From: a virus
Virus record (IMG/VR): IMGVR_UViG_3300019762_000006
Location: 1 to 64,000 of that record
Reading direction: 5' to 3' (one strand)
Length of the DNA: 64,000 bases
The notes beneath the pieces are model-generated. The model saw only the letters and a program-made list of their open reading frames with translations. It was not told the DNA's origin and ran no database searches. The position numbers were made by a program, and so were the translations under genes. Shown piece by piece: positions 2,177-58,112 of the stretch (positions are counted from its first letter, which is position 1; each line of letters starts with the position of its first letter).

Positions 2177-2190
2177 GATTTTATTTGAAT

Positions 2191-3177: not shown

Positions 3178-3220
3178 TTGTTAATTCTCCTACGAATTTA
3201 ATTTGTTAGTCCTAAGACAC

Positions 3221-3248
3221 CTAATATAAAGTAAGGACTGTTAATCCT
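3221..3248 (-). promoter_or_regulatory. degenerate virion-RNAP hairpin promoter
   Basis: CTAATATAAAGTA-AGGACT-GTTA-ATCCT; loop G at +19, stem has one bulge. Confidence 0.45.
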
Positions 3249-3519
3249 CTAATACTTTCTTCTTCTCTGCTAGTTTAGCTTGTAATACTGCTATTCTATC
3301 CATAGACTCAATCTCTGCTTCCATAGAGTCTGCTTTAGCTTCAATGATAGACACCTTTAATGTTTCTTTTGCAATAGTAGTCATGTCGTTTGCTAAGTCT
3401 ATAATGTTTACTGCCACATTAATACCAGATACTGCACCATATCCAATAGCTCCGATAGATGAACGAATTGGGTTCTTTGTAATATACTCTCTTGATTGTT
3501 TGTCGATTTGGTTTGCCAT
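3241..3519 (-). CDS. early hypothetical protein (92 aa)
   Basis: AGGAGG SD; hydrophobic N-half, coiled-coil C-half. Confidence 0.75.
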   Translation of the reverse strand: MANQIDKQSREYITKNPIRSSIGAIGYGAVSGINVAVNIIDLANDMTTIAKETLKVSIIEAKADSMEAEIESMDRIAVLQAKLAEKKKVLED

Positions 3520-26672: not shown

Positions 26673-26723
26673 ATGTTAGTAACAGTAACAAATGTAGAAC
26701 TAGCTGGAATAGCGAGTGACTAA
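26673..26723 (+). CDS. 16-aa leader ORF MLVTVTNVELAGIASD
   Basis: AAAGGA SD; TAATG overlap with 26723. Confidence 0.4.
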   Translation: MLVTVTNVELAGIASD

Positions 26724-28501
26724 TGAAAGAACCACAAATTGATATACGACAGACAGCAGTACAGCAACATATAAACAGAGTAGGATTTAAGAACAAGTTT
26801 CTAAGACTTTGGGGAGATAACGGTATAGCCCTTAGTGGTAGACATATATACTATCCAGATATGGAATTCAGAAATGTAAAGCTATTTAAGTTTCTGAACA
26901 TGTATGAGGATCTAAAGGAGTCTACAAATAATATGAAAGGTGTAGAATCTGCTTGGATATACTTAAACCCAGAAAAAATGAAATCCTCAGATTTGACTGA
27001 AGAGCTGTTAGTACAGACCTTAGAGTTTAACATACCTAACGGTGTGTATAGCATAACTGTAGCTCCTAAGGTAAGGCTAGTCAAAAGGAAATTCGGTGGG
27101 ATATTTGGTACTACAACAGTAACTGAAGAAGGCCCTGATACTTTAGGTATACTAAGTGATACATATGTAAATGGGGATGGGACTATAGACCATAAGGTAC
27201 TAGGCGAATACATCAAAGATAACTACACCACATTAGTGTCAGACTATATAATAGACCCTAATAGTACTCCTGAGGAGGATTCTGAAAGTATAGAAGTAGA
27301 AACAGCTAATTTGGTGGCTATGTACGCTTTAGGAGGTTCAAATGGGTTCAGTGTAGAAGTTACAGGAATGACTTACACTTTTTCGGAATCTGCCAAAATA
27401 GTGAAACAAGATAATGGTACTTCAGTTAGCTACCCGTATCGTACTAAGGCTTTGAATATAGAGATGAAAATAGAACAGATTGGCGCTATAGGAGAAGATG
27501 ACCCTATAGTACAAAAAATAGTTGCAAAATATAATGAACTTGAAGCATTGGATGAAGCTAAAAATGCAACGAATTCGTCAGTAGATAGCGCACTTAGTAA
27601 AGTATCAGAAAAAACTGATGAGATATGGGTGAATGGTCTGATGAGGCTTGACATATTTAGTGCCCAAGTCCTGAAGACCAAAGATTTAGTTCCTATAATA
27701 ACTGGCTCAATAGATACAGGCTACCAAAAGAAAAAAGCAAAATGGTATAGCAAATTACTTTCAATTATAGTACTAGTAGTAGCAGTATACTTGACAGCAA
27801 TTTCTGGTGGAAGTTTGGCACCATTAGCTAAAGTGGCATTAGTAGCTACCGTTGCTACGTTAGCTGTTACTGTTACCAGTGTAGTTCTAACTGCATGGGG
27901 AGACTATGCAGGAGGAGCATTCGCAGGTAAGCTATCGCAAGGATTAGGTAAAATATCTGCTATAGTAGGATTCCTAAATCTGGCAAATATAGCAGTTAAC
28001 GCACTACGAACAGCTGCTACGGAAGGTGCCAAACAAGCAGCTGCTCAAGAGCTTGGTAAGCAGGCCACTGAAGTTACAGCTGCAGAGTTAGTTACTTACC
28101 AAGCAAGTAGGTCTCTATTAGACACAATAACCCAAACAGCTGCTGAGCTATTTAAAAATACGGGAGGTAACTTCCTAAGCACAAAGCAAGGATTGACAAT
28201 AACTAACAAAGTGTATGGTATGTACACAAAAAACAAGTTAGAAAAGCTGTCCTCGAAGCTTGAATCAGCAGAGACTAAAGAAGCGAGTTACGCTGAGTTA
28301 GAGGAGCAGATGAGATCAAAAGACATTAGTAAAGAATTTATAAAAGCTGGAGCTGAAGTGCTAACTGATAGTATAGATGACCCCTATGACAACATATACA
28401 GTGGTTGGTCTACCAATATGCATTCAGGCAATATACAGAAGACTAGTTGGAAATGGAATAGGACTGGTGCGAAGGACGGCTTAAGGAATGATAAGATATA
28501 A
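26723..28501 (+). CDS. membrane-segment virion protein (N4 gp53-like)
   Basis: KKAKWY followed by long hydrophobic helices; no Cys; gene order. Confidence 0.65.
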   Translation: MKEPQIDIRQTAVQQHINRVGFKNKFLRLWGDNGIALSGRHIYYPDMEFRNVKLFKFLNMYEDLKESTNNMKGVESAWIYLNPEKMKSSDLTEELLVQTLEFNIPNGVYSITVAPKVRLVKRKFGGIFGTTTVTEEGPDTLGILSDTYVNGDGTIDHKVLGEYIKDNYTTLVSDYIIDPNSTPEEDSESIEVETANLVAMYALGGSNGFSVEVTGMTYTFSESAKIVKQDNGTSVSYPYRTKALNIEMKIEQIGAIGEDDPIVQKIVAKYNELEALDEAKNATNSSVDSALSKVSEKTDEIWVNGLMRLDIFSAQVLKTKDLVPIITGSIDTGYQKKKAKWYSKLLSIIVLVVAVYLTAISGGSLAPLAKVALVATVATLAVTVTSVVLTAWGDYAGGAFAGKLSQGLGKISAIVGFLNLANIAVNALRTAATEGAKQAAAQELGKQATEVTAAELVTYQASRSLLDTITQTAAELFKNTGGNFLSTKQGLTITNKVYGMYTKNKLEKLSSKLESAETKEASYAELEEQMRSKDISKEFIKAGAEVLTDSIDDPYDNIYSGWSTNMHSGNIQKTSWKWNRTGAKDGLRNDKI

Positions 28502-28538
28502 TAGAGACAAAATAGAATAAAAGTAATAGGAGATAACT

Positions 28539-29060
28539 ATGACAGAAAAAGAAATGCAAGCAATACTTGCTAATCAAACAGGACGTGACGAGTATACGGA
28601 TTTGGGATTTAGTAAAAACGGGCTGATAGCACCTAATAGTAGTGCATTAGCCGGACAGTTAGTCACTACGCAGCCTACAACAACTTTGGGTAATCCTGGA
28701 CTATCTGGAACTGTGGGGACAGAAACAACATCCCCATTGCTACAAGAAGGTGGATATGTGCCAAATCTTAAGTTCGATGCGAATAGTAATGTGACAGGTG
28801 TGGATACTACTACAGGAATTGGGTTAAATGCCCCTGTAGGTACAGGTAACTCGGATGCATCGTGGTTCTCAGAAAATAAGGATATGCTAAGTGCTGGGTT
28901 GGGATTAGGTCAACTAGGTTTAGGTGTACTAAATTACAATGCAAATAAAAAACAGTTAGAAAGTGACTTGGCTACAGCACAACAAGCTAGACAACTAGCA
29001 CTGGCAAGAGCTGCTAATAAAACTGGGATTCAAAACAAGTTCCAATCGGTATGGAGTTAA
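28539..29060 (+). CDS. ejection protein (N4 gp52-like)
   Basis: Gly-rich GLGLGQLGLGVLNY; no Cys; gene order. Confidence 0.6.
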   Translation: MTEKEMQAILANQTGRDEYTDLGFSKNGLIAPNSSALAGQLVTTQPTTTLGNPGLSGTVGTETTSPLLQEGGYVPNLKFDANSNVTGVDTTTGIGLNAPVGTGNSDASWFSENKDMLSAGLGLGQLGLGVLNYNANKKQLESDLATAQQARQLALARAANKTGIQNKFQSVWS

Positions 29061-29061
29061 T

Positions 29062-30390
29062 ATGGCAATAGATTTAACAGGTGGTATAAGTAGCGCGTTA
29101 TCTGATACCTTTAATAGGTTCAATCAAGACGACTTAAACAAGAAAGCAGAACTGGCTAAACAAGAACAGCTTAAGTATGTGAGAGATAGAAATGCTGTGC
29201 TAGATGCACAAAATAAACAGCTATTCGATATGAAAATAGCTGAAGCGAATAGGCTAAAACAACAAGACAATAGACTTGGTGAAATAATGGGTAAGCTTAG
29301 TAACACAACAGCAGAACAAGTAGTGAGTACTCCTGGAAATGCTAATGAAGTTGCTGCTCAACAAGGGCTGAACCAAAGAGTAGACCAAAGATTACAAAAC
29401 TATAAGCAGAATCAAGACAATAAATATACAGATAACTTGTTTGCTGCATTAGATGCACAAAATGAGGCTCTAATGAATGTTAAAGAAGGCATTATGTTGT
29501 CTAAACCCAAAGACCCTAGAAGTACTGGGTACACTGTAAGTCCTGTGAAAGGTACAAGTAATGAAGTGTACACTACTACTGAAGGGGAAAGACTAACATT
29601 TGACCCTGAAAGTGCGGTTGGTAAACTGCTGTACGGAAAGAATACTGGTGGAGGATATGAACAAGTAACTCCTGTTAATGCGGTAGTTGGCGGTGAAGAG
29701 GCCAAAAAGGCTACAGCAGAGATGGAAAGAATAAAAGCTGAAGGGCCTAAATTCAACGATAAGCGTATTGAAGCAATAAACAGTAGCAGAGTAGACGTAG
29801 ATAAATTAGTTAAACCCTCAAAAGAGATAAAGAATGTGAAACTTACTAAAGATGAGTGGGCCCAGAATGCATACAATATAATTGCTAGTGACCCAACATT
29901 GTCTGGAAGTGCCAAAGCTAAAGCAATAAACTCCCTAAACACTCAAGCAGAGTTGCTATTTGGTAAAAGTAAAGAAGCTACCTATGACCAAATATTCAAG
30001 GCAAAGAAAGCTATAAAAGAAGAAGCTGATGCTAGACAGACAAGTACAGCAATTGCTAGAGACTTAAATATAAGAATACCTAATGGTATGTCAGGCAAAT
30101 CTGCGTTAGACTATGTGAAAAATACTGAGGCGTATAAGACGCTAGGAGATAAGAAAAAGTATAATAAATATGGTGCAGGGCCAGAAACTCTAAAGGCTTA
30201 CGATAGTGGACTTGGTACTATAGACTCAGATGACCAAAAGAAAATTGAAAAAGCTGCGGCCAAAGCTAAGCTTACGGATAAAGATTTGGCTAGTATAATA
30301 ACAACTATGAATACTAAGGACTTAACTCCTAGATTCAGTGGTAATGTTACTGAAGATGTACTAGACTACATAAATAGAACTTCTAAATAA
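29062..30390 (+). CDS. ejection protein (N4 gp51-like position)
   Basis: Directly upstream of vRNAP; no Cys; Q/N/K-rich. Confidence 0.55.
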   Translation: MAIDLTGGISSALSDTFNRFNQDDLNKKAELAKQEQLKYVRDRNAVLDAQNKQLFDMKIAEANRLKQQDNRLGEIMGKLSNTTAEQVVSTPGNANEVAAQQGLNQRVDQRLQNYKQNQDNKYTDNLFAALDAQNEALMNVKEGIMLSKPKDPRSTGYTVSPVKGTSNEVYTTTEGERLTFDPESAVGKLLYGKNTGGGYEQVTPVNAVVGGEEAKKATAEMERIKAEGPKFNDKRIEAINSSRVDVDKLVKPSKEIKNVKLTKDEWAQNAYNIIASDPTLSGSAKAKAINSLNTQAELLFGKSKEATYDQIFKAKKAIKEEADARQTSTAIARDLNIRIPNGMSGKSALDYVKNTEAYKTLGDKKKYNKYGAGPETLKAYDSGLGTIDSDDQKKIEKAAAKAKLTDKDLASIITTMNTKDLTPRFSGNVTEDVLDYINRTSK

Positions 30391-30446
30391 TGCTATAAGG
30401 TATGTTATGTTAAAATAGTTAAAATATACAACTATAAGGACATAAC

Positions 30447-33400
30447 ATGCCAACTCAAGAAGAACTTCTAAACGCTGTATTCGTAAATACAAATAACACA
30501 CCAAAACAAACAAATAATTCACAATATGTATACGATGCAGATACACTATACCAAAATGGTAATGGGTACAGAGTAGAAGGGATAGATGCTCCTGAGATGC
30601 CATCCTATGCACTAAAGCAAGAAAGAATTGCAAAGGCACTAAAAAGCAAGCTTGGAAGATTCGTTAGTAAAGCAACAGCTGGAGAAGCTGCTAAACTAGA
30701 AGCTGAACTAAGTACACTGAACTTCAATGGGATTGACTCAGGATTCCAAGAAACAAGCTTTAATGACAATCAACTACAACCTACTTACCAAGAAACTCCA
30801 CAATCCGATTCAAAAGGGGTATATGGGAGAGATATACTCAATAACCCAGCATACCAAAATGAACTTGTGGCTAAAGGATATGCAATACCTGCGTTTGATA
30901 ACCAGACACCAGAAGGTCAAGCACTAATGCTAAATGCAAAGAAACAAAAGCTTGGGCTTTGGGCAGATCCGGAATATGCTGCTGAAATGGAAGCAGTGGC
31001 CAATAAAAGAGGTACTAGTACAGTAGAAGAGATACCTGAATACAATATACTAAGGGGCGTGGGTTCTGCTGGATTAGATGTAGCAGCTAAGGTTGGTGGA
31101 CTGATTGGTGAAACTATTGAGTCTGCTGGTGAAGGAATTGGAGTAGATGCTGTTAAAAACAGCGGAACAGCATTGCAAAATGCCTTTACAGAGTTCCAAA
31201 GAAAACAGTATGGTAAAGAGATAACTGGGTATGTAAGTAGAAATGTAGATGAGCTTAGCGCTGAAATAGACGATACAATAAAAAAAGATGGATACATGTC
31301 TGCAATAGCTAAGGCTGTGACAGACCCAAGATCACTGGAAGTACTTGCAAATAGTGTGCCTGAAATGATAGCACTTGCGGCTAGTGTTGGAGGTATGGCT
31401 GTAGCGAATGTGAACAATAACATAAATATGGCCGAAGCTGAATTAGGTAGAAAATTAGACACAAAAGAAAAGGTGTTGAGTGCTAGTGCTAGTATAGTTG
31501 GTACGTACATGGATAGATTTGGTGACAAATTGGCACTTAGTGGGATGAATCCTACTAAAGAAGCACTAAAGACTGTGATAAATAAAATGAGCCAAGAAGG
31601 TAAAAATACACTTAGTAAGAAGTATGGTAAAGAGATACTTACAATAAGTTCTGCTCCACTTAGACTAGCTAGTGCAGGTGCTATTGAAGGATTGACTGAA
31701 AAAGGTCAAACAATGCTAGAAACTGCTGCACAAACTCCTAGAGTATTCGAGGAAGGATTTACAAAAGAAGAACTAGATGAATCCAATGTTGCTGGTGTAC
31801 TTGGGGTTACTATGGGTACACAAATGGCAAGTCCAAAAGTTGTTTATGATGTAGCTACGAAAACAGTGCCAAGTCTTCCAAAGGCTAGTAAAGATATACT
31901 AGAACGAGCTACAGAGACAGAAGCACAACGTAAAGTAAGAGAAACTACTGAAGTAAGTGCTCCAATTAGAGAGGCTGCAATAGACAGTACACTAAAAGGT
32001 GACACAGACAGTGTGGTAAAATCAGCTGAGGAGATGCATGGTAAATTAGCTAAAGAGTTAGATGGAAGTGCTCCAAAGAAGTATACATACAATGTGGTAC
32101 TATCAAATGCACTGAATAGAGCACACGAGTCGAATGATGACACAGCAATAGCTAATGTGTACAAAACAATTGGTGATTTAAATAACCGAAAAGATGTAGA
32201 CTTCAAAGCATCTGAAATGGTAGATAGTAGAATGTACGAAGCTACTAAGGAGTTTCTGGACTTAGTCAACAAAAATGACTTAACAGCAACAGATAAAATG
32301 GAAGCAATAAACTTAGGTAAAAAGATAGGTGAGAATGCTACTGAACAAAGTGCTAGTAAAAGTAACATACTAACTGAAGTAAGATTGATGAAAGAGCAAT
32401 TGGAAAAAGAGAAAAAAAGCTTAAAGTCAGTTAAAGGCTCAGAAGACTTTGGTGGACCAATAGATAAGCTAATGAAAATAGTAGATGATTACTTAGAAAA
32501 TAGAGATGCTGAAAAAGTGAATGCTCAAGTAATGGACTTAGGGTACATAGAATTGGATCCCACAAGTGGTGTACTAAAAGCAGATCCAAATAGACCTGGG
32601 TTACGTGTATATGCTAAAGAGCTAGAAAAACAGATGCTAAACCCTAACACTAATAAGAACTTACTAGATAAAAAAGTAGTTGCTAGTGGACAAGTAACAA
32701 TACCAAAGCTAGCTAAATTTGCTAAGAGTAGACTAGATAAACTAAATCCATACAAAGATAATTCTGCGTACCAAACAAGCTCATTACTAAACACACTCAA
32801 GGCCGAAAATGAACAAATGAGTAACACAATAGTAGAACTAGTGAAGATTGCTAGTAAATTAGAAATAGACAAAGAAATAAAAGATAAGTATGTAGCAAAG
32901 CTAAAAGAAGCTGGTAAAAGTGCTGTAGAAGCAAATAAAGAGATGCTAAGAAGAGAAAAGTTAATAAATGACACAACTAAACCAAGTGGAAATGGACAAC
33001 TTGCGTTCCAAGTAGACCCAGATGGTACTGAATCAATAAGACTGGTAAGTGGTGAAAGTAACACAAAAGTTGCTGATGTAGTAGATGGTAAAGTTGTGCC
33101 AATTGCACAAGAACAGAATGCGGAACAAGTTGCAGATAAACCTCTAAGTAATGCTTCAATAGTTGAAAAAGCTCCAACTAAAGAATCAATGAAAGAAGAG
33201 GGTGTAAGAAATGCTAAAAATGTGACAACTGCACCAAAGCCAAAGCAAACAGTAGTGCAATGGTTAACAGCACAACTGGATGAAATGGTTGATAACCAAA
33301 AAAAGACAATGGTAGAAGCTGCTAAAGAAATAAATGACTACTTAAGTGCACAAGGATTAGATAAAGATACAATTACTAAGTACAATGTAATACTTAGAAA

Positions 33401-36400
33401 GCTGGTAAAAGATAGAGTGGATGAAAAGAAAACTCCTCTGAATAAAGTAAGAGCTAGGGTATCAGAATTGGATACAGAACTAAGTAAGCTAGTTGAAAAC
33501 GTTGAGGATATGAATATGCTAGTACACGTAAAAGAGTACTACAAAAGAAAACTTGGTGAAGTACAAGCTGAAAGAACTACATTGAATAAGGTGCTTGATA
33601 GAATGGAGGCAGAACTAACTAAGAGAACTGGTACAAATAGAGTAAGCAAGTTAAGAGAGCTTGCTGACAAACTAATAAAAGGTATGGTAAGAGCACTACA
33701 AGAAGTTAAAAAAAGAATAAATCTAGTAAACGCTGAGCACGATAGATTAACATCAGAGCTAAATGAAATATCAACAATGATAAAAACAATTGAAGAAGAA
33801 TACATAGGTACAGTAGAACCCGAGATAGAGACTAGACAAACATCAATAGGAGAAATAACAAGATATGAAGATAGTGCTTATGGACCTATGGTAGAGCTTG
33901 GTAACAAAAGAGTAAATGCTAGAAGAACCCTAAGTCCAACAGGTAAGGTAGTACAAAGTCCGTCAAGTGCGTTGAATGATGCAATGGAAGTACTAAAACA
34001 GGATAAAATAGAAGAGTTGAATGCAGAATTAACAGAACTTGCTAGTGAAGGTATAACAAGCTTAGGAGCTAAAATACTAAAAAGAAACCTAGAAAACTTC
34101 CCAATAGTGTCTCCAGTACATAAAATACTTACTAGTGGGTATGATAGTGTATTCGGAAAGCTAGAAGGAAATATATTCAAAGATGCTGATAAATTACTAG
34201 AAGTGTTACCAAAAGGATTCAAAGACTTCTTTGCGTCAGACAAAGAGAATGAACAGGCACTAATAGATAACTTCCAAACAATGAGCAAGTATATAGAAAA
34301 TACTAAAATTGGAGATATAAAAATTGGTTCAAATAGGATTAGTAAACATATAGATCAATTTGGATTGGTAATGAACCAAAAGCTTGGGTTTGTGCCAATT
34401 GAAAGACAACTAATAGTTGGTGACAGAGTAAAGATTGGTGAAACAACATACTTAATAGGTAAAATAGAAGGAGATAAAGCTACTGTAACAATCCCAGGTA
34501 AGAAAGGTACAAGCACAAAGAAACTAAGTGAGTTCCAATCAGTTAGAGAGAAACAGCCTGAATCGTTTCCAGTAGATATAATAGAACTAATAGGAACTGT
34601 GAAAGATGATAAACTGGAGATAGATGAACAAACTGAAACAATACTAAAGTTCTACACAGCTAAGATGGTAACCGATACACAAGCTATGATTGGTAAAATA
34701 CTAAGCTTCGATGAATCAGAAATGGGACTGTACTTAGGTATCACAGATCCAGATGAACAGATAAAAGTCAAACAAGATGCACAAAATGGTTTGGTAAATT
34801 CTGCAAGTGTACGGTCAGATATAGGGAATGAAGTATACCAAGCACTAGGAATAAAGTTAACAAAGAATACTCCTGAGTTTACTGAAGAATCACTAACATC
34901 TGCGTTAGGTGTACTAGTACAAGCAATAGCAGTAGATAATGGTACAATGTCAATGGATAAGCTAACTGCAGAGAAGAATACAAACTTGATACAAGTAAAC
35001 AGAGCAGCAGTAGATAAAGCACTAGAAGTAGATGGTAGAGGTACTGAACAATTAGCAAAAGCGATGAGTAAACTACAGTACTTGAATGAAGCTAGAAATA
35101 GACCCCTACCAAAAACTGCAAAGCCTAAGCGTAAGACTAGTAGAAATGTAATGAATACAAAAATACCTATGGATGCATTGAATAACGATAAACTGAATGA
35201 TATGGAACAAATAGCATATACAATTAGTCCTAAACTACAAATGTGGTTGGCTATGGATGAAACAGAAGCATTGAAAGCCAGAGGATACGTAGAAGTTGAG
35301 TCTGCTGGTCTGCATATAAGTGAACAAGATGCACAACAAGCCAGAAATGATAAATTGGTAAGAGAATGGGAAATACTTAAGATATTTGCTCAAGCAACAA
35401 AGAATAAAAAGTTTTACTTAGATTGGGGTCAAACAGTAAGTGGTAGATTCACAATACTAAATGACATACAGTACCAAGAAAGTAAACTGCATAGAGAGTT
35501 TGTGGTAGCAGACAATAGCACAGAGACAATAGATGTAAATGATGCTGATTCAAGACAAATGTTGGAAGCTAGCATACTACAAGGGTTAGACATGGACCCA
35601 GATAAGTTAAGTACAGAAACAGCTAGTGCTAACTTCAATAAACTGTTCAAAGTAACAGATAAAGGAATTGAGGTAACTGAAAAAGGGGCAGTAAAAACAG
35701 CATATGAAGCATTGAGAGCTGGTAAGGTAGATGCGGATGCAATGGCAGAAGTATTTGCTGATTCAGAGGGACATCATGGTATAAGCTCAATAGAGTTGCT
35801 AGTAGATTGGAACAAAGCAATAGTAGATGGTACTACACTAGAAACACACGCTAACTTAGAAATTGATGCGATAACAAGTGGTATGATACTAACATTACTA
35901 CAAATAGGTACAGATAAAGCAATAGAACTTGCTGAAAAAGGTGGAATATATACGGCTGATAGAGCAAAAGAACTAGAAGCATATGTAAAACATTGGTTGG
36001 GTGATGTAACATTTACTCCAGGAGCATTGATTGAAGCTGGTAAGAAACACGCATCAGCAATTGAATCTGGTACAGATAAAAAGTTGCTAAAAGGACAAGA
36101 AACTAACTTACAAAGTGATACAGTATTCAAAGACCTGTACTCAACAATTGGGGTTGGGATGATTGAAGAAGTTCAAACATATAAAGAGAGATTACTAGCA
36201 AAATCGGATAAGACTGAGTCTGAAATGAAACAACTTGCAATGTTAAATGAGATCGGAGAGTTGAACTTAAAGAATATCCGATCAATTGCAAAGAGTCCTG
36301 TAATGGTATACATATACGGAGCAACAGTAAACTCAATTAAGAAAAAGTTAACATACTCACTTGGAATAGATACACTAGTTAAGACAATAAAGAAAGCTAG

Positions 36401-38000
36401 TAAACTACTAAAAGAGGGAAAAGATGCTGGTAAAGAGTTGGGGTTTGTAGATATGTATATACCAAACAAAGTGTACAAAGATAGATTCGGTGGTAAGATT
36501 GCAGATAATATGCCAGAGTGGAAAAAGTTGCTACACTTAGATATAGATAGTGGCACAATAAAAACAGTAGGAGATGTGATCAATGCAACATTTGGAACAG
36601 CAATTGAAACAACATTCGATAGTAGACTAGGATTCGTAGATAGAAATAGGGATGCAGTAAAAACCCTAGAAATAATAGCGTTCGAAGCATACCAAGTAAG
36701 ACTGGCCGAAGAAGTAGAAAACTTGCTAAATAGTAGATACGGGGAAGCAAAGCATGAAGGTGAGTCCTACAAAATAAGTAAAGATGACTTGGTAAACATA
36801 AACAACAAACTGACTGCACAAGGGTATGGGCATGACATCGTATGGGATGAAGCAGGTAGAGATAGAGTAAACCAAACACTTAACAAGACTGGTACTAAAG
36901 GGGGATTACATTCAAGTAGTGTGACAGTTGGTGACACAAAAGTTGGAGGGCAGATAAAACAGAATAAAGCAATAGTAAATACAGGTGCTGCATCAACAAT
37001 ACCAATCCATGCAATAGATGGTAGGATGATACTAGAAACACTAAATAGAGAATTAAAAGGTCCGCTAAAGGGTAAATACCATGGTGGGAATGTGTATGAT
37101 GCTGTAGTGCTAAGTGCTAACAAAGCAATGCTAACAGACACAGCAGACTACTACAATAAGAATATGATTGAAATAGGGTTCAGTAGATCAATAGTAGCAG
37201 ACCAAATGGCCCTAGTAGAGAATATGCTAAGTACAATGAGTGACAAACAAAAAGTAAAGATGTTCAATAGATTAGGTCTAAGACCTGAAGGAGATACTAG
37301 AGAAGACTTTACAAAAGAAGTAAACAGACTTCACTTAGGAACTGGTAAAATGCTGGAGAGACTAGAATTAGCTGAAACAACGAATAAGGAAAGATTAGTA
37401 AATAGTGGTAAAGAGTACATGTCTGGACATCTGTACCAAATGGGTTCAGGAGTAGTAAATATACCTGCTAGTGAGGTAAGAGCTAAAGAGTTCCCAGCAA
37501 TAACAACACTTAAAACAATGCTAGAAAATAAGATGATTGCTGATAGAAAACAAACAGCTGAGGAATTTGCTAGTAAGACAACAGGACAGCCAGACTATGT
37601 GCTAAACTTGTATGATATAACACAGAATACACAAGTTAAGTCAAAAGCAAATATAGCACAAATGGTGAATAAAGGCGATAAGCTAAAAGTTAGTGATAAC
37701 TTAACAGAATCTCTAGGTAGCAAAGATACAGTTGAAATAGTAGGTTCAGTTGGTAGTGAGTTAAACAATAGTCAAAAGTGGTGGTTAAATAATATGAAAA
37801 ATAATATACTTGCATCAGATGCTGGTATAGTAGCTAATAGCAATACATCAGAAAAGACAATGAGTGAATCAGGTAGAGAGCTAATTGAGGGTGTGTGGGT
37901 TAAACAAAAAGAAGCTAAAAACAAGCTAGAAAAAGATATAATAACTCCAAGTGAAGCATTCAAAAAGAATGTAAATAACAAGATAGAATGTAAGGAATAG
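30447..38000 (+). CDS. virion RNA polymerase, N-terminal plus catalytic part (N4 gp50-like), with N-terminal thermonuclease domain
   Basis: T/DxxGR (TVSGR), motif A EIDAITSG, motif B RSIAKSPVMVYIYG, motif C VYDAV; SNase motifs DADT / RVEGIDAPE / YGR / GLW. Confidence 0.9.
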   Translation: MPTQEELLNAVFVNTNNTPKQTNNSQYVYDADTLYQNGNGYRVEGIDAPEMPSYALKQERIAKALKSKLGRFVSKATAGEAAKLEAELSTLNFNGIDSGFQETSFNDNQLQPTYQETPQSDSKGVYGRDILNNPAYQNELVAKGYAIPAFDNQTPEGQALMLNAKKQKLGLWADPEYAAEMEAVANKRGTSTVEEIPEYNILRGVGSAGLDVAAKVGGLIGETIESAGEGIGVDAVKNSGTALQNAFTEFQRKQYGKEITGYVSRNVDELSAEIDDTIKKDGYMSAIAKAVTDPRSLEVLANSVPEMIALAASVGGMAVANVNNNINMAEAELGRKLDTKEKVLSASASIVGTYMDRFGDKLALSGMNPTKEALKTVINKMSQEGKNTLSKKYGKEILTISSAPLRLASAGAIEGLTEKGQTMLETAAQTPRVFEEGFTKEELDESNVAGVLGVTMGTQMASPKVVYDVATKTVPSLPKASKDILERATETEAQRKVRETTEVSAPIREAAIDSTLKGDTDSVVKSAEEMHGKLAKELDGSAPKKYTYNVVLSNALNRAHESNDDTAIANVYKTIGDLNNRKDVDFKASEMVDSRMYEATKEFLDLVNKNDLTATDKMEAINLGKKIGENATEQSASKSNILTEVRLMKEQLEKEKKSLKSVKGSEDFGGPIDKLMKIVDDYLENRDAEKVNAQVMDLGYIELDPTSGVLKADPNRPGLRVYAKELEKQMLNPNTNKNLLDKKVVASGQVTIPKLAKFAKSRLDKLNPYKDNSAYQTSSLLNTLKAENEQMSNTIVELVKIASKLEIDKEIKDKYVAKLKEAGKSAVEANKEMLRREKLINDTTKPSGNGQLAFQVDPDGTESIRLVSGESNTKVADVVDGKVVPIAQEQNAEQVADKPLSNASIVEKAPTKESMKEEGVRNAKNVTTAPKPKQTVVQWLTAQLDEMVDNQKKTMVEAAKEINDYLSAQGLDKDTITKYNVILRKLVKDRVDEKKTPLNKVRARVSELDTELSKLVENVEDMNMLVHVKEYYKRKLGEVQAERTTLNKVLDRMEAELTKRTGTNRVSKLRELADKLIKGMVRALQEVKKRINLVNAEHDRLTSELNEISTMIKTIEEEYIGTVEPEIETRQTSIGEITRYEDSAYGPMVELGNKRVNARRTLSPTGKVVQSPSSALNDAMEVLKQDKIEELNAELTELASEGITSLGAKILKRNLENFPIVSPVHKILTSGYDSVFGKLEGNIFKDADKLLEVLPKGFKDFFASDKENEQALIDNFQTMSKYIENTKIGDIKIGSNRISKHIDQFGLVMNQKLGFVPIERQLIVGDRVKIGETTYLIGKIEGDKATVTIPGKKGTSTKKLSEFQSVREKQPESFPVDIIELIGTVKDDKLEIDEQTETILKFYTAKMVTDTQAMIGKILSFDESEMGLYLGITDPDEQIKVKQDAQNGLVNSASVRSDIGNEVYQALGIKLTKNTPEFTEESLTSALGVLVQAIAVDNGTMSMDKLTAEKNTNLIQVNRAAVDKALEVDGRGTEQLAKAMSKLQYLNEARNRPLPKTAKPKRKTSRNVMNTKIPMDALNNDKLNDMEQIAYTISPKLQMWLAMDETEALKARGYVEVESAGLHISEQDAQQARNDKLVREWEILKIFAQATKNKKFYLDWGQTVSGRFTILNDIQYQESKLHREFVVADNSTETIDVNDADSRQMLEASILQGLDMDPDKLSTETASANFNKLFKVTDKGIEVTEKGAVKTAYEALRAGKVDADAMAEVFADSEGHHGISSIELLVDWNKAIVDGTTLETHANLEIDAITSGMILTLLQIGTDKAIELAEKGGIYTADRAKELEAYVKHWLGDVTFTPGALIEAGKKHASAIESGTDKKLLKGQETNLQSDTVFKDLYSTIGVGMIEEVQTYKERLLAKSDKTESEMKQLAMLNEIGELNLKNIRSIAKSPVMVYIYGATVNSIKKKLTYSLGIDTLVKTIKKASKLLKEGKDAGKELGFVDMYIPNKVYKDRFGGKIADNMPEWKKLLHLDIDSGTIKTVGDVINATFGTAIETTFDSRLGFVDRNRDAVKTLEIIAFEAYQVRLAEEVENLLNSRYGEAKHEGESYKISKDDLVNINNKLTAQGYGHDIVWDEAGRDRVNQTLNKTGTKGGLHSSSVTVGDTKVGGQIKQNKAIVNTGAASTIPIHAIDGRMILETLNRELKGPLKGKYHGGNVYDAVVLSANKAMLTDTADYYNKNMIEIGFSRSIVADQMALVENMLSTMSDKQKVKMFNRLGLRPEGDTREDFTKEVNRLHLGTGKMLERLELAETTNKERLVNSGKEYMSGHLYQMGSGVVNIPASEVRAKEFPAITTLKTMLENKMIADRKQTAEEFASKTTGQPDYVLNLYDITQNTQVKSKANIAQMVNKGDKLKVSDNLTESLGSKDTVEIVGSVGSELNNSQKWWLNNMKNNILASDAGIVANSNTSEKTMSESGRELIEGVWVKQKEAKNKLEKDIITPSEAFKKNVNNKIECKE

Positions 38001-38002
38001 AT

Positions 38003-41000
38003 ATGGGTTGTTCAGCACAAGATCAAATAGCAGGCTACAAAACAATAAATAAAAAGTTAAGAGAATTAAATCCAAATGTAGATCCAATAGGACTGCAGTT
38101 TGGTATAAACAAGTACTGGCTAGGCTTAGAAAATAATATAATGACTGATGCTGAAAAAGATGTATACAACACATTAGTAAAGCAAACAGAAGGGATAGCA
38201 TTAATAAACTTAGGCGGAACTAAACAATTGCAAGAACAGTTGGTGTTCGTTAAAGACATAGGTAAAGAGTATGTAATACATTTAGAAAGTGGTAAAAACT
38301 ACACATTCGAAAAAGGTAAAGCACAAAGTAATCCAACAAGAGCTGGTAGAACAGTAATGATGCCTGCAATGGAATTGACTAAAACATATCAAAATTCTGT
38401 AAAAGGTAGTGACCAAAACACACAAATAGGAGAAACTGAAGCAGATAAATTCATAGAACAAGAAGTAATAGATCTAGGCACAACACTAACAGATAAGTTC
38501 ATGGAAATGGCTGAGATGAATCAGGAAAGTTCAGGGTTAAAAGAACTAAGAAACAAAATGAAGATAATTGGTGAGTATGAAGTAAAGATAAATGAGTACA
38601 ATGCAAGAAATGAAGAAGCTCCAGCAAAGTTAATGGAAGACTACAACAAAACCTACGATGAGGCTGAAGCAATACAAGCAACACTGACAGAGTTTGAAGT
38701 ACTGACATCAACTGTGTTAAATACATACCAAGTAACAATGACTAATTTAGGCACTGGTGAACTAAAGATGCAAATGTTTGAGAATGCAAATAGCCAAACT
38801 GCGGCATCTATAGATTTGCGAACAAATGAAATGAAAGCTAGATGGAATAAAATGTCAAGAATAACAAACTTGAGTGAAGCGTTCCTACATGAGATAAACC
38901 ACAAGATGTCAAGTCACGTGTTCGATGCAAATGTACAACTAACAAGACTAATGAAAGACTTGCGAGATAGTGCAATAAATAGTGGTGTAACCTATGAACT
39001 GTTTCTAGACAAGATTGCTGATCCAACAGAACAAGAAATAGAAATAGCAAAGATGAAGTTTAAGTATGTGTTTGACAAAACAGCAGATATAGAAGAGTTC
39101 TACGCATATGCAACAACAAATGAGCAAGTATACAATGCGATAAAAGATGTGAAGATATCAATACCGCTAATAAAAGACCTTGAAATAGACCCTAGTAAAC
39201 CAAGCTCAATAAAAAAGGTACTAAATGCACTAATAAAAACAGTAAATACAATATGGACAACGCTAAGTGGAAGAGGAAAACGTGGTGGTCAACTAGTAGC
39301 AGAAATGGTAACAACAATAGCTAAACTAGATGCAGAAATGATGCAACAAAAAATGGTAGATGAGAATGAACAGCCTGGAGTAAGTAGCTACGCAAGAGCT
39401 AAAATGAATAGCATAGATGAGCTAATAGAACCTGTGGTAAAGAAAGTGGGAGATTGGTCAGAGAAGTTAAGTGAAGCTGGACCAAAAGATGTAAGTAAGC
39501 AAATAGCCAAAATACCAGTACTAAATGAACTAATGAATACTGGAATAACCCAATACTTGTGGAGAGCGGTAACGCAAGATACAACAACAGAGGATGTGGC
39601 AGATATGTACGCAGTGTTTAGACATAGTAAGCAAGTGGTAGAGAAACATACAGCAGACATTAGAAATGGGGTTAAGTCAGTAGCAACTGAAATGTTCAAA
39701 GACACAGACAAAACAACAAAAGACGCAATAACAAAAGTAGTACTAAGTGGAGATATGGCACAGTTCACAGCAAGTGAGATACAAGAGTACCTAAATGAGC
39801 CTGCTAAAATACAAGAAGAAATAGAAAAGCTAACAAAAATAGTACATTTGGGAGCAAGTAAAGAACTAGTAAAAAGTAGGGATAAGCAAATAGATGGACT
39901 AGCTGAGTACTTAGTAAGTGGTAAAACAGTAGCACATGATCAACAAATAAATGCAAATAATATAGCAGCAAATATGCAAATAGCGCATAGAGTGCCAAAA
40001 AGAAAGATGCCTGAAAGACCAAGTAAAGAATTAATCGATACGATAGATAAAATAGTGTCCCTAAAAGTGCTCCAAAAGTCCGATGAAGTACACACTAAAG
40101 CAATAAAAGAGTTGGTGTCTAATAAAGACGGAGTAGAATTGCTAGATAAAACAATAAATATGTATAGAGGATACATAGATAACATGAGAGCAGATGCAAC
40201 AATAGATGCACATGATCCAATACCAAAAGGATACACAAGACCAGCAGATGGACTGCTAAGATACGAGTTAATCCCTGAAGATGAAGTAAAAGCTCAGGAA
40301 AGTGTGCTAATGAGATTGGTAAATGATAAACCGTACACAATAGTAGAAGGTAAAAAATACTACTTAATGACGGGTAGAACTAAGTCAGTAGGGTTCAGTG
40401 AAGGTGCTATTGGGTTAATATCACATACAACTGAAGGTATACCCCTAAGTTCACTAATAAGAAAAAACAATGAAATGAAAGGAAATAAAGGACTAATAGA
40501 TGGGGAACTAAGAGCTAAAACAAAACAGATAGTAGAAGCAATTAGAAATTCAAAAAATGGTAGAATAAATAAGTTTGCAATGATAGAAGGACAAACACTA
40601 GTACCAGTGTACAACCACAGAAATGAGATAGTAGACTACAGAATACAGTTGAATAACCTAGAAAAAGAGATGTACTTGCCAGATAGAGAAACAGAGATAG
40701 AAGATATACTAAGTAACACATTCAGTAGAAGTATAAAAACTTCACTAACAGCCACAGAGAACAAAAGAGTGGTAGATACAATAATAGAAAACAGTGGTAG
40801 AGGAGTACTAGAAAATCCAGATGACTACGTGCTAGTAGAAGAATATACTGAAGAAGATAAAATGAATGGTGTTAAGCGTGAAAAAAGGCATGATAGATGG
40901 GAATACTTACCAGACCACACAAAAGACTACATATATCAAAGAACTAGCAATAAAGGTATACTAGTACACAAAGACTTCGTAGAATTAATGACTGGTGAAA

Positions 41001-42007
41001 AAGATGTGACGATTGGGAACTTTGCAAAGTTTGGGTTTGATATGAAACAACACCCTGTAGCAAAAGCTAGATTAATGGCATTGGAAGCCTATATAACTGA
41101 AATACTAAGCTATGTGAAGCAAGCAATGGTTGTGCTAAATGGGGATATACTAGTTGGTAACCAAGTGAGTAATGCAATGGTAGCAGCAAGTCACGGAATA
41201 AACCCAGTAAAATACACTAAAAAGTTCAAACAGAGATGGCAACAATTAAATGACTACAATGAAAAAGTACAAATGTTATCAGAGTTAGAAGTTAAGCAAA
41301 TGGCTGGTGAAAATGTTGGGTTAGAGATAAGACAACTGAAGAAACAGTTAGAAGGTAATATATGGGATGAATTGGTAAAAGATGGTCAATACACTGCGTT
41401 AGTGGAAGACGTAAATATAGAAGCTAAACTAGATGGACAAATTGCAACAATGGTACAACAACAAATAGATAAAAGTAACTTCAAAGGAATAATAGAAGGA
41501 GTTAGAAATGGTCTGTATATAGATAAAACAACAGCACTGTATCAAACAATGGCAAAATCAGTACACTATGGTGATGCGATAACAAGACAAATAATAAAAG
41601 AAGAATTGGAAGAAAAAGCAATAAAGAGAGAAGGAGAGTTAACAGAAGATGTAAAAAAAGATATACTAAACTACCTAGATCAGTTGCTAGTAAACTACGG
41701 ATACACAATGAACCGGTGGTGGAAGTACTCAGAGAGAGTGGGAGGGTTGTTCTTTATGCGATACTACATGGGACAAGCAAAAGCTATAATGAGTATGGCA
41801 AAAAAGAGTCCAACAAGGACAGCACTACTGCAAGGTGTGCAAAAAGTGACTGGTGTGGATATAGCAGACCCAATAGACACATATACCAATAGTGGTATAG
41901 ATGGAGTAACTTATAGGCATATGTTTACAGAAGCTCCTTACTTATTAGCAGAACCTAACATACTTGATCTTATACCCGACATGTCCGCGGCATTTGTAAT
42001 GAGGTAG
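38003..42007 (+). CDS. vRNAP C-terminal part as a separate ORF, with zincin-like domain
   Basis: FLHEINH and EEFYAYATTN; INANNIA, LVPVYN, HYGDAITR, LVNY resemble N4-type vRNAP C-terminal regions. Confidence 0.8.
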   Translation: MGCSAQDQIAGYKTINKKLRELNPNVDPIGLQFGINKYWLGLENNIMTDAEKDVYNTLVKQTEGIALINLGGTKQLQEQLVFVKDIGKEYVIHLESGKNYTFEKGKAQSNPTRAGRTVMMPAMELTKTYQNSVKGSDQNTQIGETEADKFIEQEVIDLGTTLTDKFMEMAEMNQESSGLKELRNKMKIIGEYEVKINEYNARNEEAPAKLMEDYNKTYDEAEAIQATLTEFEVLTSTVLNTYQVTMTNLGTGELKMQMFENANSQTAASIDLRTNEMKARWNKMSRITNLSEAFLHEINHKMSSHVFDANVQLTRLMKDLRDSAINSGVTYELFLDKIADPTEQEIEIAKMKFKYVFDKTADIEEFYAYATTNEQVYNAIKDVKISIPLIKDLEIDPSKPSSIKKVLNALIKTVNTIWTTLSGRGKRGGQLVAEMVTTIAKLDAEMMQQKMVDENEQPGVSSYARAKMNSIDELIEPVVKKVGDWSEKLSEAGPKDVSKQIAKIPVLNELMNTGITQYLWRAVTQDTTTEDVADMYAVFRHSKQVVEKHTADIRNGVKSVATEMFKDTDKTTKDAITKVVLSGDMAQFTASEIQEYLNEPAKIQEEIEKLTKIVHLGASKELVKSRDKQIDGLAEYLVSGKTVAHDQQINANNIAANMQIAHRVPKRKMPERPSKELIDTIDKIVSLKVLQKSDEVHTKAIKELVSNKDGVELLDKTINMYRGYIDNMRADATIDAHDPIPKGYTRPADGLLRYELIPEDEVKAQESVLMRLVNDKPYTIVEGKKYYLMTGRTKSVGFSEGAIGLISHTTEGIPLSSLIRKNNEMKGNKGLIDGELRAKTKQIVEAIRNSKNGRINKFAMIEGQTLVPVYNHRNEIVDYRIQLNNLEKEMYLPDRETEIEDILSNTFSRSIKTSLTATENKRVVDTIIENSGRGVLENPDDYVLVEEYTEEDKMNGVKREKRHDRWEYLPDHTKDYIYQRTSNKGILVHKDFVELMTGEKDVTIGNFAKFGFDMKQHPVAKARLMALEAYITEILSYVKQAMVVLNGDILVGNQVSNAMVAASHGINPVKYTKKFKQRWQQLNDYNEKVQMLSELEVKQMAGENVGLEIRQLKKQLEGNIWDELVKDGQYTALVEDVNIEAKLDGQIATMVQQQIDKSNFKGIIEGVRNGLYIDKTTALYQTMAKSVHYGDAITRQIIKEELEEKAIKREGELTEDVKKDILNYLDQLLVNYGYTMNRWWKYSERVGGLFFMRYYMGQAKAIMSMAKKSPTRTALLQGVQKVTGVDIADPIDTYTNSGIDGVTYRHMFTEAPYLLAEPNILDLIPDMSAAFVMR

Positions 42008-42067: not shown

Positions 42068-42247
42068 ATGTACAAACAAAATAAACCAGTAAGAGTAGGT
42101 ATGACAATTAAATCAGACTTACTAAAAGAAATGAAAGACTACTTAAAACAAGTAAATGAAAACAAGTCACTAAAATACGTAAGTCAGTCAGAGTTTGTAA
42201 ATGAGGCAATTGCTCAGCTGTTAAATAAGGAGCTGGGAGATGCGTAG
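42068..42247 (+). CDS. ribbon-helix-helix protein (59 aa)
   Basis: Translated by hand: MYKQNKPVRVGMTIKSDLLKEMKDYL...VSQSEFVNEAIAQLL. Confidence 0.8.
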   Translation: MYKQNKPVRVGMTIKSDLLKEMKDYLKQVNENKSLKYVSQSEFVNEAIAQLLNKELGDA

Positions 42248-43124
42248 GTTGACAACAGAAGAATGGATAGAGAAAGCTATAAAAGTTCATGGTAATAAGT
42301 ATGACTATAGTAAAGTGAACTACATAACAAATAACACTAAAGTAATAGTTATTTGCCCAATACATGGAGAAATAGAACAAGTGCCACGAAGTCATCTGGC
42401 TACTGTTGGGTGCCAGAAGTGTGCTAATAAAACAAAGCTGGCTAAAGAAGAGTTTATAGAGAGGGCAATAAAAGTACACGGAGATGTATATGATTATACT
42501 AAGACTGTTTATAAAAATACATATTCGAAAGTGCTCATAACCTGCCCAATACATGGTGACTGGGCACAACTCCCAATGGGTCATCTACAAAGTAGAGGCT
42601 GTCCTAAGTGTGCTATAGAAAGCAGAGTTGCGAAAAACTCAAAAACTACAGAGCAGTTTATAGAGGAAGCTAAGAAAGTGCATAATAGTAAGTATAACTA
42701 TACTAAAGTAGAGTACGTAAATCATAAAGAAAAAGTAATCATAATATGCCCAGAGCATGGAGAGTTTATGCAAAGTCCAAACAGTCATTTAATAGGTAAA
42801 GGATGTCCAAGCTGTGCTGTTACCGGGTTCGATAAAACTAAACCAGGACTGCTATACTACTTAAAAGTAACACTAGAAGATGGTAAAGAGTTGTATAAAA
42901 TCGGGATCACCAATAGGTCTGTGAATAGAAGGTTTAATCCAACAGAGTTAAAAAAGATAAAAGTGATAAAAGTAGAAGAATTTAAGTCAGGTAAAGATGC
43001 TTGGGATAAAGAAAGAGGGATACTAAGTAAGTATAAAGAGTACAAGTACATAGGTCCAGATGTGCTGGACTCAGGCAATACTGAATTGTTCACAGAGAAT
43101 GTAATGGCACTAAAATTGAATTGA
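42240..43124 (+). CDS. putative homing endonuclease: 3 DUF723-like Zn repeats + GIY-YIG (T5orf172-like) domain
   Basis: YDY.K..Y....KV.I.CP.HG...Q.P..HL..GC..C x3; LYYLKV..LYKIGITNR..GNTELF. Confidence 0.8.
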   Translation: MRRLTTEEWIEKAIKVHGNKYDYSKVNYITNNTKVIVICPIHGEIEQVPRSHLATVGCQKCANKTKLAKEEFIERAIKVHGDVYDYTKTVYKNTYSKVLITCPIHGDWAQLPMGHLQSRGCPKCAIESRVAKNSKTTEQFIEEAKKVHNSKYNYTKVEYVNHKEKVIIICPEHGEFMQSPNSHLIGKGCPSCAVTGFDKTKPGLLYYLKVTLEDGKELYKIGITNRSVNRRFNPTELKKIKVIKVEEFKSGKDAWDKERGILSKYKEYKYIGPDVLDSGNTELFTENVMALKLN

Positions 43125-46080: not shown

Positions 46081-46980
46081 TCATACTGCCATCTCCGCTT
46101 TAATAGTAGGATGTGGGTCATATCCAGTAAGTGTGAATGAATCCATAGTGAAGTCGTCAAGACAAGTGATGTTTGGGTCAAGTGTCATAGTTGGTAATGG
46201 TCTAGGCTCTCTGCTGAGCTGTAGCTTACACTGTTCAACATGATTAGAGTAAATGTGCACATCACCGCCCGTGTAGATTAGTTCACCAAGTTTTAGATTA
46301 CATACTTGCGCTACCATCATAGTTAATAATGCGTAACTAGCAAGGTTGTACGGTAAACCTAATAGGACATCAGTTGATCGCATATGAAACATACAGGATA
46401 ACTTACCGTTAACTACATAGAACTGAAACCCATAGTGACATGGGGGTAAAGCCATATCGTCTATTTCTGCTACGTTCCATGCAGATACGATATGTCTGCG
46501 TGAGTCTGGATTGGTCTTGATTGACTCAATAACCTGTGCTATTTGGTCTATATTAAATATCTCAACAGTTTCTCCTTCAACAGCATCAAAACCAATTCTA
46601 ACTTGTGGAGTCTTTCTCCATTGTCTACCATACACAGGACCAAGTTCCTTGACTAAGTCAGTATTCTCGTAGCCTAGGTCTTTTCCTTGAGCGTCTGCAT
46701 TAGCTGTCCAGATAGTTTGCTTACCAATTAATTGCTCTCTTGGTAAACCGTACTGAATCTCTGCTAATCTACGCTCGTCAGTTGAACCTTCTAGGAACCA
46801 CAGTAACTCTGCAATAATGCCTTTAGTGAACATTTTCTTAGTTGTGACTAGTGGAAAACCTTCTGCTAAATTAAATCGCATTTGTGCCCCAAACATAGAT
46901 ATAGTGCCTGTACCAGTTCTGTCAGATTTAACAGTTCCGTGTTCAAGTACTTCTCTAATCAGGTTGTGATATTGTTTCAT
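46081..46980 (-). CDS. thyA: thymidylate synthase
   Basis: [50 protein letters not shown]. Confidence 0.97.
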
Positions 46981-47353
46981 GTTGTTCCTTTAAGTTTAGT
47001 TGTCTAATTCTTTCTTGTTCAAAATGTAACAAAAATGCCACATTTGTAATAGCATGAGATAAATGAGTCTTTGAGCTTTCTTTGTCAAATGTTTCGCCTG
47101 AACGATAAGCTTCCAGATGTCTATATAAAGCATCTAGATAGCGCTCTTCTCCGTTATGAATCGTTTGCCAAGAATTTGCCGCATACTTCTCTGCACCAAA
47201 TGTAAGTATATCAGCTATGGCCTTAATGGCTATAGGAGGCACTAAAGAATAGCGTAACTTGCCTGTATCATGTTTGGGAGATATACCTGCGGCGAGTTTC
47301 TCATCTTTACAAAGATGACAAGTTTCCATCGGTTCGCATATACATGTATCCAT
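46955..47353 (-). CDS. DUF5664 dATP/dGTP diphosphohydrolase-domain protein
   Basis: [42 protein letters not shown]. Confidence 0.8.
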
Positions 47354-57932: not shown

Positions 57933-58112
57933 ATGATAAAAAAGCAAAAACCTATTAGAGTTCATGCAACAATGGATCCAAAATTGATCCAGCAGATGAA
58001 AGATTACTTACAACAAGTAAATGATGACAAAACTTTAAAGTACGTTAGTCAATCTGAGTTTATTAGTGAAGCAGTTAACCAATTACTTAATATGGAATTA
58101 AACAATGAGTAA
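57933..58112 (+). CDS. ribbon-helix-helix protein (59 aa)
   Basis: Translated by hand: MIKKQKPIRVHATMDPKLIQQMKDYL...VSQSEFISEAVNQLL. Confidence 0.8.
   Translation: MIKKQKPIRVHATMDPKLIQQMKDYLQQVNDDKTLKYVSQSEFISEAVNQLLNMELNNE

Follow-up and report, generated by a model that had tools for sequence, protein, structure and literature searches.

The stretch of DNA analyzed here (the window, 64,000 nucleotides (nt), positions 1 to 64,000 of the IMG/VR virus record IMGVR_UViG_3300019762_000006) carries a virion RNA polymerase (vRNAP) of the phage N4 type that is encoded by two adjacent open reading frames (ORFs) in place of one. Part 1 ends with ...KIECKE and the stop codon TAG (37998-38000), part 2 begins with MGCSAQ in a different frame after an intergenic gap of 2 nt, and each part possesses a single cysteine (Cys), located at the end that faces the other part. 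The subject of this study is the pair of terminal cysteines at this split. The features of the locus are as follows, with the basis of each assignment in brackets.

26723..30390, plus strand: three Cys-free ORFs of 592, 173 and 442 amino acids (aa), in the place of N4 gp53, gp52 and gp51 (by position and size only)
30447..38000, plus strand: vRNAP part 1, 2517 aa, N-terminal region and T7-like RNA polymerase domain (ORF, PHROG 2206)
34731..37934, plus strand: RNA polymerase domain of part 1, residues 1429-2496 (PHROG 2206)
37911..37997, plus strand: C-terminal tail module of part 1, its last 29 aa, ...NVNNKIECKE (alignment with the middle piece of the related loci L026 and L036)
37989..37991, plus strand: TGT codon of Cys2515, third residue from the C-terminus of part 1 (Cys count)
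37992..37997, plus strand: AAGGAA, likely Shine-Dalgarno sequence of part 2, 5 nt upstream of its ATG (read directly)
38003..42007, plus strand: vRNAP part 2, 1334 aa, head module and C-terminal domain (CTD) (ORF, PHROG 2206, PDB 11fw_A)
38003..38407, plus strand: head module of part 2, approximately residues 1-135 (conservation in relatives)
38009..38011, plus strand: TGT codon of Cys3 of part 2 (Cys count)
38888..38902, plus strand: HExxH motif (H296, E297, H300) in the CTD (conservation in CTD proteins)

Profile comparisons placed both parts in the same family. Residues 1429-2496 of part 1 matched positions 1062-2033 of the 3406 positions of PHROG 2206 (virion RNA polymerase; E 3.2e-42) and residues 213-1299 of part 2 matched positions 2269-3378 of the same profile (E 3.5e-69); the gene is therefore cut between the polymerase domain and the CTD. 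Additionally, a CTD profile of part 2 matched PDB 11fw_A, annotated as 'Virion DNA-directed RNA polymerase' (E 1.6e-27). The T7-like single-subunit RNA polymerase domain of the family is present in part 1 and the large CTD in part 2, whereas two features of the N4 type, a single polypeptide of ~3500 aa and the total lack of Cys, are absent from the window. The family is shared with N4 gp50 and other Schitoviridae vRNAPs such as gp71 of Pseudomonas phage DEV, and so is the domain order of N-terminal region, T7-like polymerase and C-terminal domain; moreover, the vRNAP gene follows small Cys-free ejection genes in N4 and in the window alike. Unlike N4, the window encodes two polypeptides with one terminal Cys each, cut at the polymerase-CTD linker, and its genome contig is ~90 kb long as compared to ~70 kb for N4. 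In the available part of a structural report on N4, this linker is described as 23 residues (2102-2123) that are flexible and invisible in cryo-electron microscopy (cryo-EM) (PMC13434306), which is in line with the cut in the window, since it lies between the polymerase domain and the CTD. Identity to Schitoviridae vRNAPs and those of known phages is at the level of ~20%; no DNA match to the junction region was found among GenBank phages, and Pfam recognized no family in either vRNAP ORF. The HExxH motif noted in the 1334-aa ORF by the first-pass annotation, which was made from the sequence by eye, was located at residues 296-300; in 40 diverse CTD proteins E297 is invariant and H296 and H300 are kept in at least 90%. 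A putative zinc-binding motif is mentioned for gp71-C in the available part of the DEV paper (PMC11445570).

The first-pass annotation had described the vRNAP as two ORFs of 2517 and 1334 aa lying 2 nt apart, with one Cys third from the end of part 1 and the other as third residue of part 2; the proteins of 592, 173 and 442 aa upstream were described as Cys-free. The coordinates hold, and programmatic counting gave the same result: one Cys at residue 2515 of 2517 in part 1, one at residue 3 of 1334 in part 2 and none in the upstream ORFs of 622, 592, 173 and 442 aa. The ejection operon (26723-42007) thus contains 2 Cys in 5058 aa (0.04%), as compared to 128 Cys in 13,587 aa (0.94%) in the other 52 window ORFs of at least 100 aa. 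With random placement, the chance that the sole Cys of part 1 falls in its last 5 of 2517 residues and that of part 2 in its first 7 of 1334 is ~1e-5. The cysteine pattern at the split is neither due to chance nor to an assembly error.

The nucleotides between the two Cys codons were inspected as well. AAGGAA doubles as the codons for the last two residues of part 1 (KE). The frame of part 2 is shut by a TAA at 37991-37993, 10 nt upstream of its ATG, and simple readthrough is therefore unable to fuse part 1 and part 2. Fusion by readthrough or frameshifting was rejected, with this TAA and the lack of a slippery run in 37994-38000 as the grounds.

Conservation of the terminal cysteines in split homologs and their absence from fused forms

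The split was found in independent sequence data. A contig from another study (X3, ~93% identical) spans the junction at positions 37757-38103 with 24 substitutions and no gaps; for the junction stretch, no RNA holder was on record. The split is kept in every relative found: part 2 has 106 homologs of 1131-1867 aa, and part 1 has 77 of 1466-3060 aa. Among the 77 part 1 matches none exceeded 3060 aa, in a search that admitted proteins of up to 4405 aa. A sequencing error, which the first-pass annotation had named as the alternative to a true split, is thus not tenable. The cysteines are conserved together with the split. In part 2 homologs, Cys is present at residues 2-6 in 105 of 106 proteins and is the sole Cys in 104, the Cys-free one being P0091, a protein of 1131 aa that is probably truncated. 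All 77 part 1 homologs have a Cys within their last five residues (sole Cys in 74), and this Cys is kept in spite of tails as different as KIECKE, ECAKG, KDC, MENC, NCRKG and IEGC.

More distant relatives were collected by an exhaustive HMMER search of a library of representatives of 1.84 billion proteins, of which the best 150 of 693 matches were analyzed. Within these 150, Cys at residues 2-7 was detected in 99 (sole Cys in 94), and representatives with an N-terminal Cys extend to ~21% identity. The other 51 comprise 7 fragments without a Met start, 19 proteins of less than 1100 aa, 12 fused-size proteins and 13 middle-size ones. Five of the 13 middle-size representatives were resolved by their cluster mates: the start of P0243 is miscalled, its mate beginning with MSTC, and out of P0223, P0282, P0302 and P0311 one has mates starting with MGC and three are incomplete versions of fused proteins (3078-4397 aa) that lack Cys.

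Fused forms show the opposite pattern. N4 gp50 (3500 aa) has no Cys, in accordance with the statement of the first-pass annotation that N4 vRNAP is Cys-free, and neither has the vRNAP of Alteromonas phage PT15-A5 (3495 aa). Of the 12 fused-size representatives (at least 3000 aa) among the best 150 of 693 matches 10 are Cys-free, fused forms being classed by length here because the local polymerase hidden Markov model (HMM) is weak on most fused N4-like representatives. The comparison of split with unsplit homologs, proposed as a check in the first-pass annotation, hence came out in favor of the cysteines as a mark of the split: terminal Cys pairs stand at split junctions and fused relatives are almost Cys-free.

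A CTD tree calculated with FastTree from 113 of 159 rows (leaving aside rows covering fewer than 850 query positions of the CTD, which include N4 and AltAD45, and five representatives replaced by their cluster mates) requires the state to switch between 'split with Cys' and 'fused' at least 6 times, 5 of these switches being forced by well-supported branches. One such case is the fused P0288 (3797 aa, no Cys), which is sister to the split P0292 (starting with MAGLDTC), residue 79 of the latter aligning to residue 1414 of the former. Junctions were therefore gained or lost several times, and the Cys pair moved with the cut each time.

A split vRNAP has also been reported for cultured phages. 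In the Alteromonas phages AltAD45-P1 to P4, it consists of ~2481 and 1404 aa (ORF127 and ORF126); the stop codon was verified by polymerase chain reaction (PCR) and both polypeptides were seen on gels, at 270 and 175 kDa (Bacteriophage 2013, PMC3821669). In the GenBank record of AltAD45-P1 the sole Cys of part 1 lies at position -3 and that of part 2 at residue 4, which is the signature of the window in a different lineage. The AltAD45 authors read the cysteines as a sign of a protein that is not injected, and neither their terminal placement nor a link between them is raised in the available part of the text (PMC3821669). For the window, packaging and injection of the vRNAP are predicted, from the gene order after Cys-free ejection-type ORFs and from the AltAD45 gel report.

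Cysteine pairing at gene junctions and in chains of several pieces

Loci with related genes (16 from IMG/VR and 18 from metagenomes) were drawn in order to compare the pieces in their genomic context. The window together with 33 loci yielded 68 pairs of neighboring ORFs on the same strand; Cys is present on both sides of the junction in 35, on neither side in 29 and on one side in only 4, so that 64 of the 68 pairs follow a both-or-neither rule. The nominal Fisher p of 1e-14 for this association is not a true probability because the loci are related. The count omits L018 (same sequence as L010), L001 and L002 (same contigs as L005 and L006) and ORFs shorter than 100 aa, a cut-off that conceals middle pieces of ~94 aa in L024, L028 and L029. 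One of the 35 pairs with Cys on both sides, in L032, consists of ...ECAKG followed by a 296-aa ORF starting with MC; this unassigned ORF sits exactly in the junction and probably represents a gene insertion rather than a genuine junction partner. CTD pieces whose start lies within their locus have an N-terminal Cys in 29 of 30 cases, the exception being L038, a contig of 1567 nt in which an internal ORF of 185 aa was chosen.

Chains of three pieces extend this rule. The first piece has one C-terminal Cys and the last piece one N-terminal Cys, the outer ends of both being Cys-free, and each middle piece has two Cys and no more, the first at residue 3 or 4 and the second within the last five residues. 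This was the case in 11 of the 11 middle pieces counted (L008, L010, L011, L013, L014, L019, L020, L026, L030, L032 and L036). In L008 and L037, the chain order is N-terminal piece, polymerase piece as the middle one and CTD piece, with cuts at the places of both N4 linkers. The clade of the window itself includes the three-piece forms L026, L030, L033 and L036 as well as the mini middle pieces of ~94 aa.

At the nucleotide level the junctions are not uniform. The C-terminal Cys is encoded by TGT in 24 and TGC in 12 cases and the N-terminal Cys by TGT in 27 and TGC in 9; all three stop codons are used, and the gap between the genes ranges from -11 to +29 nt. Selection therefore acts on the amino acid and not on a nucleotide signal. 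Moreover, adjacency of the genes is not required, as in L009 the two Cys-tipped pieces are kept ~1.5 kb apart with a ribonucleotide reductase small-subunit gene lying between them on the opposite strand (1789-2802, minus strand).

Alignments of the ends revealed that the tail of part 1 belongs with the head of part 2. The 29 aa that close part 1 align to the C-terminal end of a separate 483-aa middle piece in L026 and L036 and not to that of the L026 polymerase piece, and the L026 middle piece precedes the same MGCSAQDQ head as in the window; the tail hence accompanies the head downstream of it rather than the body upstream. Tail residues including C2515 are invariant in 14 sequences. The head module is strongly conserved as well, with M1, G2, C3, S4 and S136 among its invariant positions, and in relatives variable inserts follow after approximately residues 124-135 of part 2. 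A head of the window clade (MGCSAQDQ...) was also detected on a CTD of another, classic type (PHROG 2206, E 8e-165) in P0107, a protein of 1616 aa from a 205-kb contig to which only 10% of P0002 aligns; head modules thus seem to be mobile between lineages. The pairing of tail and head would fit a specific dock, which may set the order of the pieces in chains with several junctions.

Further domains ride in the chains of relatives, some on middle pieces of their own with Cys tips and others inserted behind the head. Examples are found in L010 (6869-9502), L013 (8696-9328) and L030 (2457-4562) and in the proteins P0191, P0196, P0263 and P0116, and the cargo types comprise NADAR-like (weak, below the Pfam cut-off), DprA-like and Dda-like helicase domains and a VgrG3-like C-terminal domain. 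The two pieces of the window are without NADAR-like, DprA-like, helicase or VgrG3-like cargo.

A proposed disulfide tether between the two polymerase parts

Following from these comparisons, we propose that part 1 docks with its tail on the part 2 head and that a disulfide forms between the two thiols within the virion, by which a nearly linear chain would be restored. The head-to-tail disulfide suggested by the first-pass annotation is well supported by the junction rule, the two-Cys middle pieces, the Cys-free fused forms and a bond of this kind in another phage, and we estimate its probability at roughly 0.7 on the strength of sequence comparison. That bond was described in the pre-ejectosome of the cyanopodophage A4 (Anabaena phage A-4L), where the C-terminal helix of gp27 lies in a cleft of gp26 (PDB 9k3a) and Cys1715 is joined to Cys5, as seen in a cryo-EM structure (PNAS 2025, PMC12002296). 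In the A-4L genome, Cys1715 (position -3) is the sole Cys of gp27 (1717 aa) and Cys5 that of gp26 (1114 aa). Thus, A4 and the window both have large adjacent ejection genes with a sole Cys at -3 of the upstream protein and at +5 (A4) or +3 (window) of the downstream one. The available part of the A4 paper describes one bond in one phage, formulates no general rule and leaves RNA polymerase unmentioned (PMC12002296). No statement of a terminal-Cys rule for split virion polymerases was found in the literature, the nearest being this bond and the AltAD45 remark.

The proposed mechanism would be as follows. The cut at the flexible linker between polymerase domain and CTD leaves one Cys on each of the facing ends, Cys2515 and Cys3. 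The tail of ~29 aa would dock on the conserved head module, and the thiols would pair as an inter-chain disulfide in the virion, yielding a nearly linear chain with stubs of 2 residues. This tether would keep part 1, which is without the encapsidation domain, together with part 2 during packaging and storage, and it would probably also hold during exit via the narrow tail. Retention of part 1 would be explained in this way because encapsidation of the N4 vRNAP has been assigned to its C-terminal domain, as cited in the available text of the AltAD45 paper (PMC3821669). Plausibly, the chain leaves the virion as one thread and the pieces are freed by host reductases, by analogy with two-chain toxins. 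In AB toxins such as those of diphtheria, botulinum and tetanus, the catalytic chain is joined to the delivery chain by one reducible disulfide, passes a narrow channel unfolded and is released by reduction in the cytosol. These toxins are synthesized as a single chain that is later nicked within the disulfide loop; the likeness is functional only, since the vRNAP chains are made from separate genes and would be tied end to end.

How a protein of ~3500 residues leaves through a channel of ~35 Å is an unsolved question in the N4 field according to the available part of the N4 report (PMC13434306). One Cys on each new end wherever the polymerase gene is cut points to a covalent tether end to end in a chain that has to stay linear. 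For Schitoviridae, the available text of the DEV paper describes suppression of Cys across the ejection operon and takes up the idea of passage through the disulfide-forming periplasm as its cause (PMC11445570); the terminal Cys pair is a precise exception to this Cys-free rule of ejection proteins. If the tether is right, the published AltAD45 reading of the cysteines as a sign of 'not injected' would have to be corrected. The idea can be tested in the already cultured phages AltAD45-P1 and A4.

Several observations weigh against a disulfide tether. Virions assemble in the reducing cytoplasm, and neither a phage thiol oxidase nor a thioredoxin was found in a partial scan covering 10 small or Cys-rich window ORFs. 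The window stems from a microbial mat metagenome, a habitat that may be anoxic or sulfidic. The bond in the window phage and in split vRNAPs in general is deduced from sequence comparison; the disulfide in this phage itself, ejection as one thread and reductive release in the cytoplasm are all put forward as inferred. Some proteins depart from the pattern: P0214/P0330 (1220 aa) is Cys-free although it aligns from residue 5 onward to residue 8 of a Cys-bearing sister, seven more mid-size representatives are without an N-terminal Cys (P0195, P0197, P0198, P0200, P0209, P0281 and P0313), and extra internal Cys occur in a few pieces (P0110, P0124, P0145, P0098 and part 1 of L015). P0214/P0330 may be a real exception lineage in which the clasp was lost, or its start may be miscalled; a search of IMG/VR with P0214 and P0243 for genomic context found nothing. 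On the AltAD45 gel, the two polypeptides ran as separate bands, with the reducing state unstated in the available text (PMC3821669). Homology of the vRNAP to A4 gp26/gp27 was considered and rejected: comparison of gp26 with the vRNAP CTD gave a hhalign probability of 0.13%, and neither gp26 nor gp27 was matched by the local HMMs of the CTD and of the polymerase up to E 10, hence the A4 pair is an analogue and not a homologue. With regard to the habitat, virions of one Bacteroides phage contain inter-subunit disulfides, as described in the available part of PMC10172136, and an anaerobic host is therefore no bar to such bonds in purified virions.

Alternatively, the two Cys might bind a shared metal together with nearby acidic residues and the free termini, or merely stabilize a non-covalent dock of tail and head. 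The C-terminal Cys is frequently preceded by acidic residues (EGC, ENC, KDC, IECKE), the N-terminal Cys has small or basic neighbors, and the reducing conditions of assembly and a possibly anoxic mat would suit this explanation. However, two thiols alone are a poor metal site, a labile bridge would fail if the pieces unfold during ejection, and the only solved example of the signature, that of A4, is a disulfide; we thus consider a metal site or non-covalent dock unlikely. It is less probable still, indeed very unlikely, that each terminal Cys serves a purpose of its own, for instance as an attachment point for some other virion protein or as a site of modification, and that their proximity just reflects accessible termini. 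Nothing specific speaks for separate roles, and they are at odds with the both-or-neither rule in 64 of 68 adjacent pairs, with middle pieces that have Cys at both ends while outer chain ends have none, and with the neighboring ejection proteins, which offer no Cys as a partner.

A third explanation would be that the Cys drive a splicing-like thioester ligation by which a true peptide bond, and thus one polypeptide, is rebuilt. Cys on both sides of the junction recall intein splice sites, but Pfam recognized no intein or Hint domain in either ORF and only 2 residues lie beyond each Cys; furthermore, AltAD45 virions contain two polypeptides of 270 and 175 kDa, according to the available text (PMC3821669), and the bond in the available A4 description is a disulfide and not a peptide bond (PMC12002296), all of which leaves ligation with scarcely any probability. 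Split inteins and protein trans-splicing were rejected on the same grounds, no Hint halves being recognized by Pfam and 2 residues lying beyond each Cys. Two further candidates were discarded: a thioester of the C3/alpha-2-macroglobulin type (CxxQ), suggested by MGCSAQ, since the Gln is not kept in other heads, and a bacterial lipobox, since the Cys is residue 3 and is not preceded by a hydrophobic signal sequence. Finally, an assembly or sequencing error, or TGT codons acting as a nucleotide signal for coupled translation or frameshifting, might be suspected from the stop and start codons only 2 nt apart and the overlap of the tail codons with the Shine-Dalgarno-like AAGGAA, but can practically be dismissed in view of the split in all 106 and 77 homologs, the junction of X3 without an indel, the PCR-verified stop of AltAD45, the use of both TGT and TGC, the spacing of -11 to +29 nt, the L009 pair ~1.5 kb apart and the closed frame of part 2.

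The disulfide tether between part 1 and part 2 might be one instance of a broader principle. Tentatively, and with the odds somewhat against it, terminal Cys clasps could be a general way in which podophages assemble injected proteins into a modular chain that is cleavable by reduction. Each split or cargo piece, with NADAR-like, DprA-like, helicase and peptidoglycan-hydrolase domains in relatives, would bring a matching tail and head that fix its place in the chain, a single thread would exit the capsid, and host thiol reductases would unclasp it in the cytoplasm, freeing polymerase and cargo. On this view, these giant proteins would be ejected by threading, which non-covalent complexes could not survive. 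If true, this would explain how cargo enzymes join the injected chain as separate genes.

Other genes and weak matches in the window

The N-terminal region of part 1 (residues 133-174; 30843-30968) has a weak match to staphylococcal nuclease (Pfam SNase, E 0.0019, 19 bits at a cut-off of 21 bits), which is a hint of a co-injected nuclease at most and no finding. Directly after part 2, at 42240-43124, lies a gene for a 294-aa endonuclease of the HNH/homing type (PHROG 681/559) with 9 Cys. A 293-aa ORF at 58105-58986 also has 9 Cys, with CxxC positions nearly those of this endonuclease. Mobile endonuclease genes beside the polymerase may be a possible route by which such genes get cut. Furthermore, a 132-aa ORF on the minus strand (46955-47353) adjoins the genes for thymidylate synthase and class I ribonucleotide reductase and matched the N-terminal domain of dATP/dGTP diphosphohydrolase (PF18909, E 4e-30). 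Enzymes of this type occur in phages that replace a DNA base.

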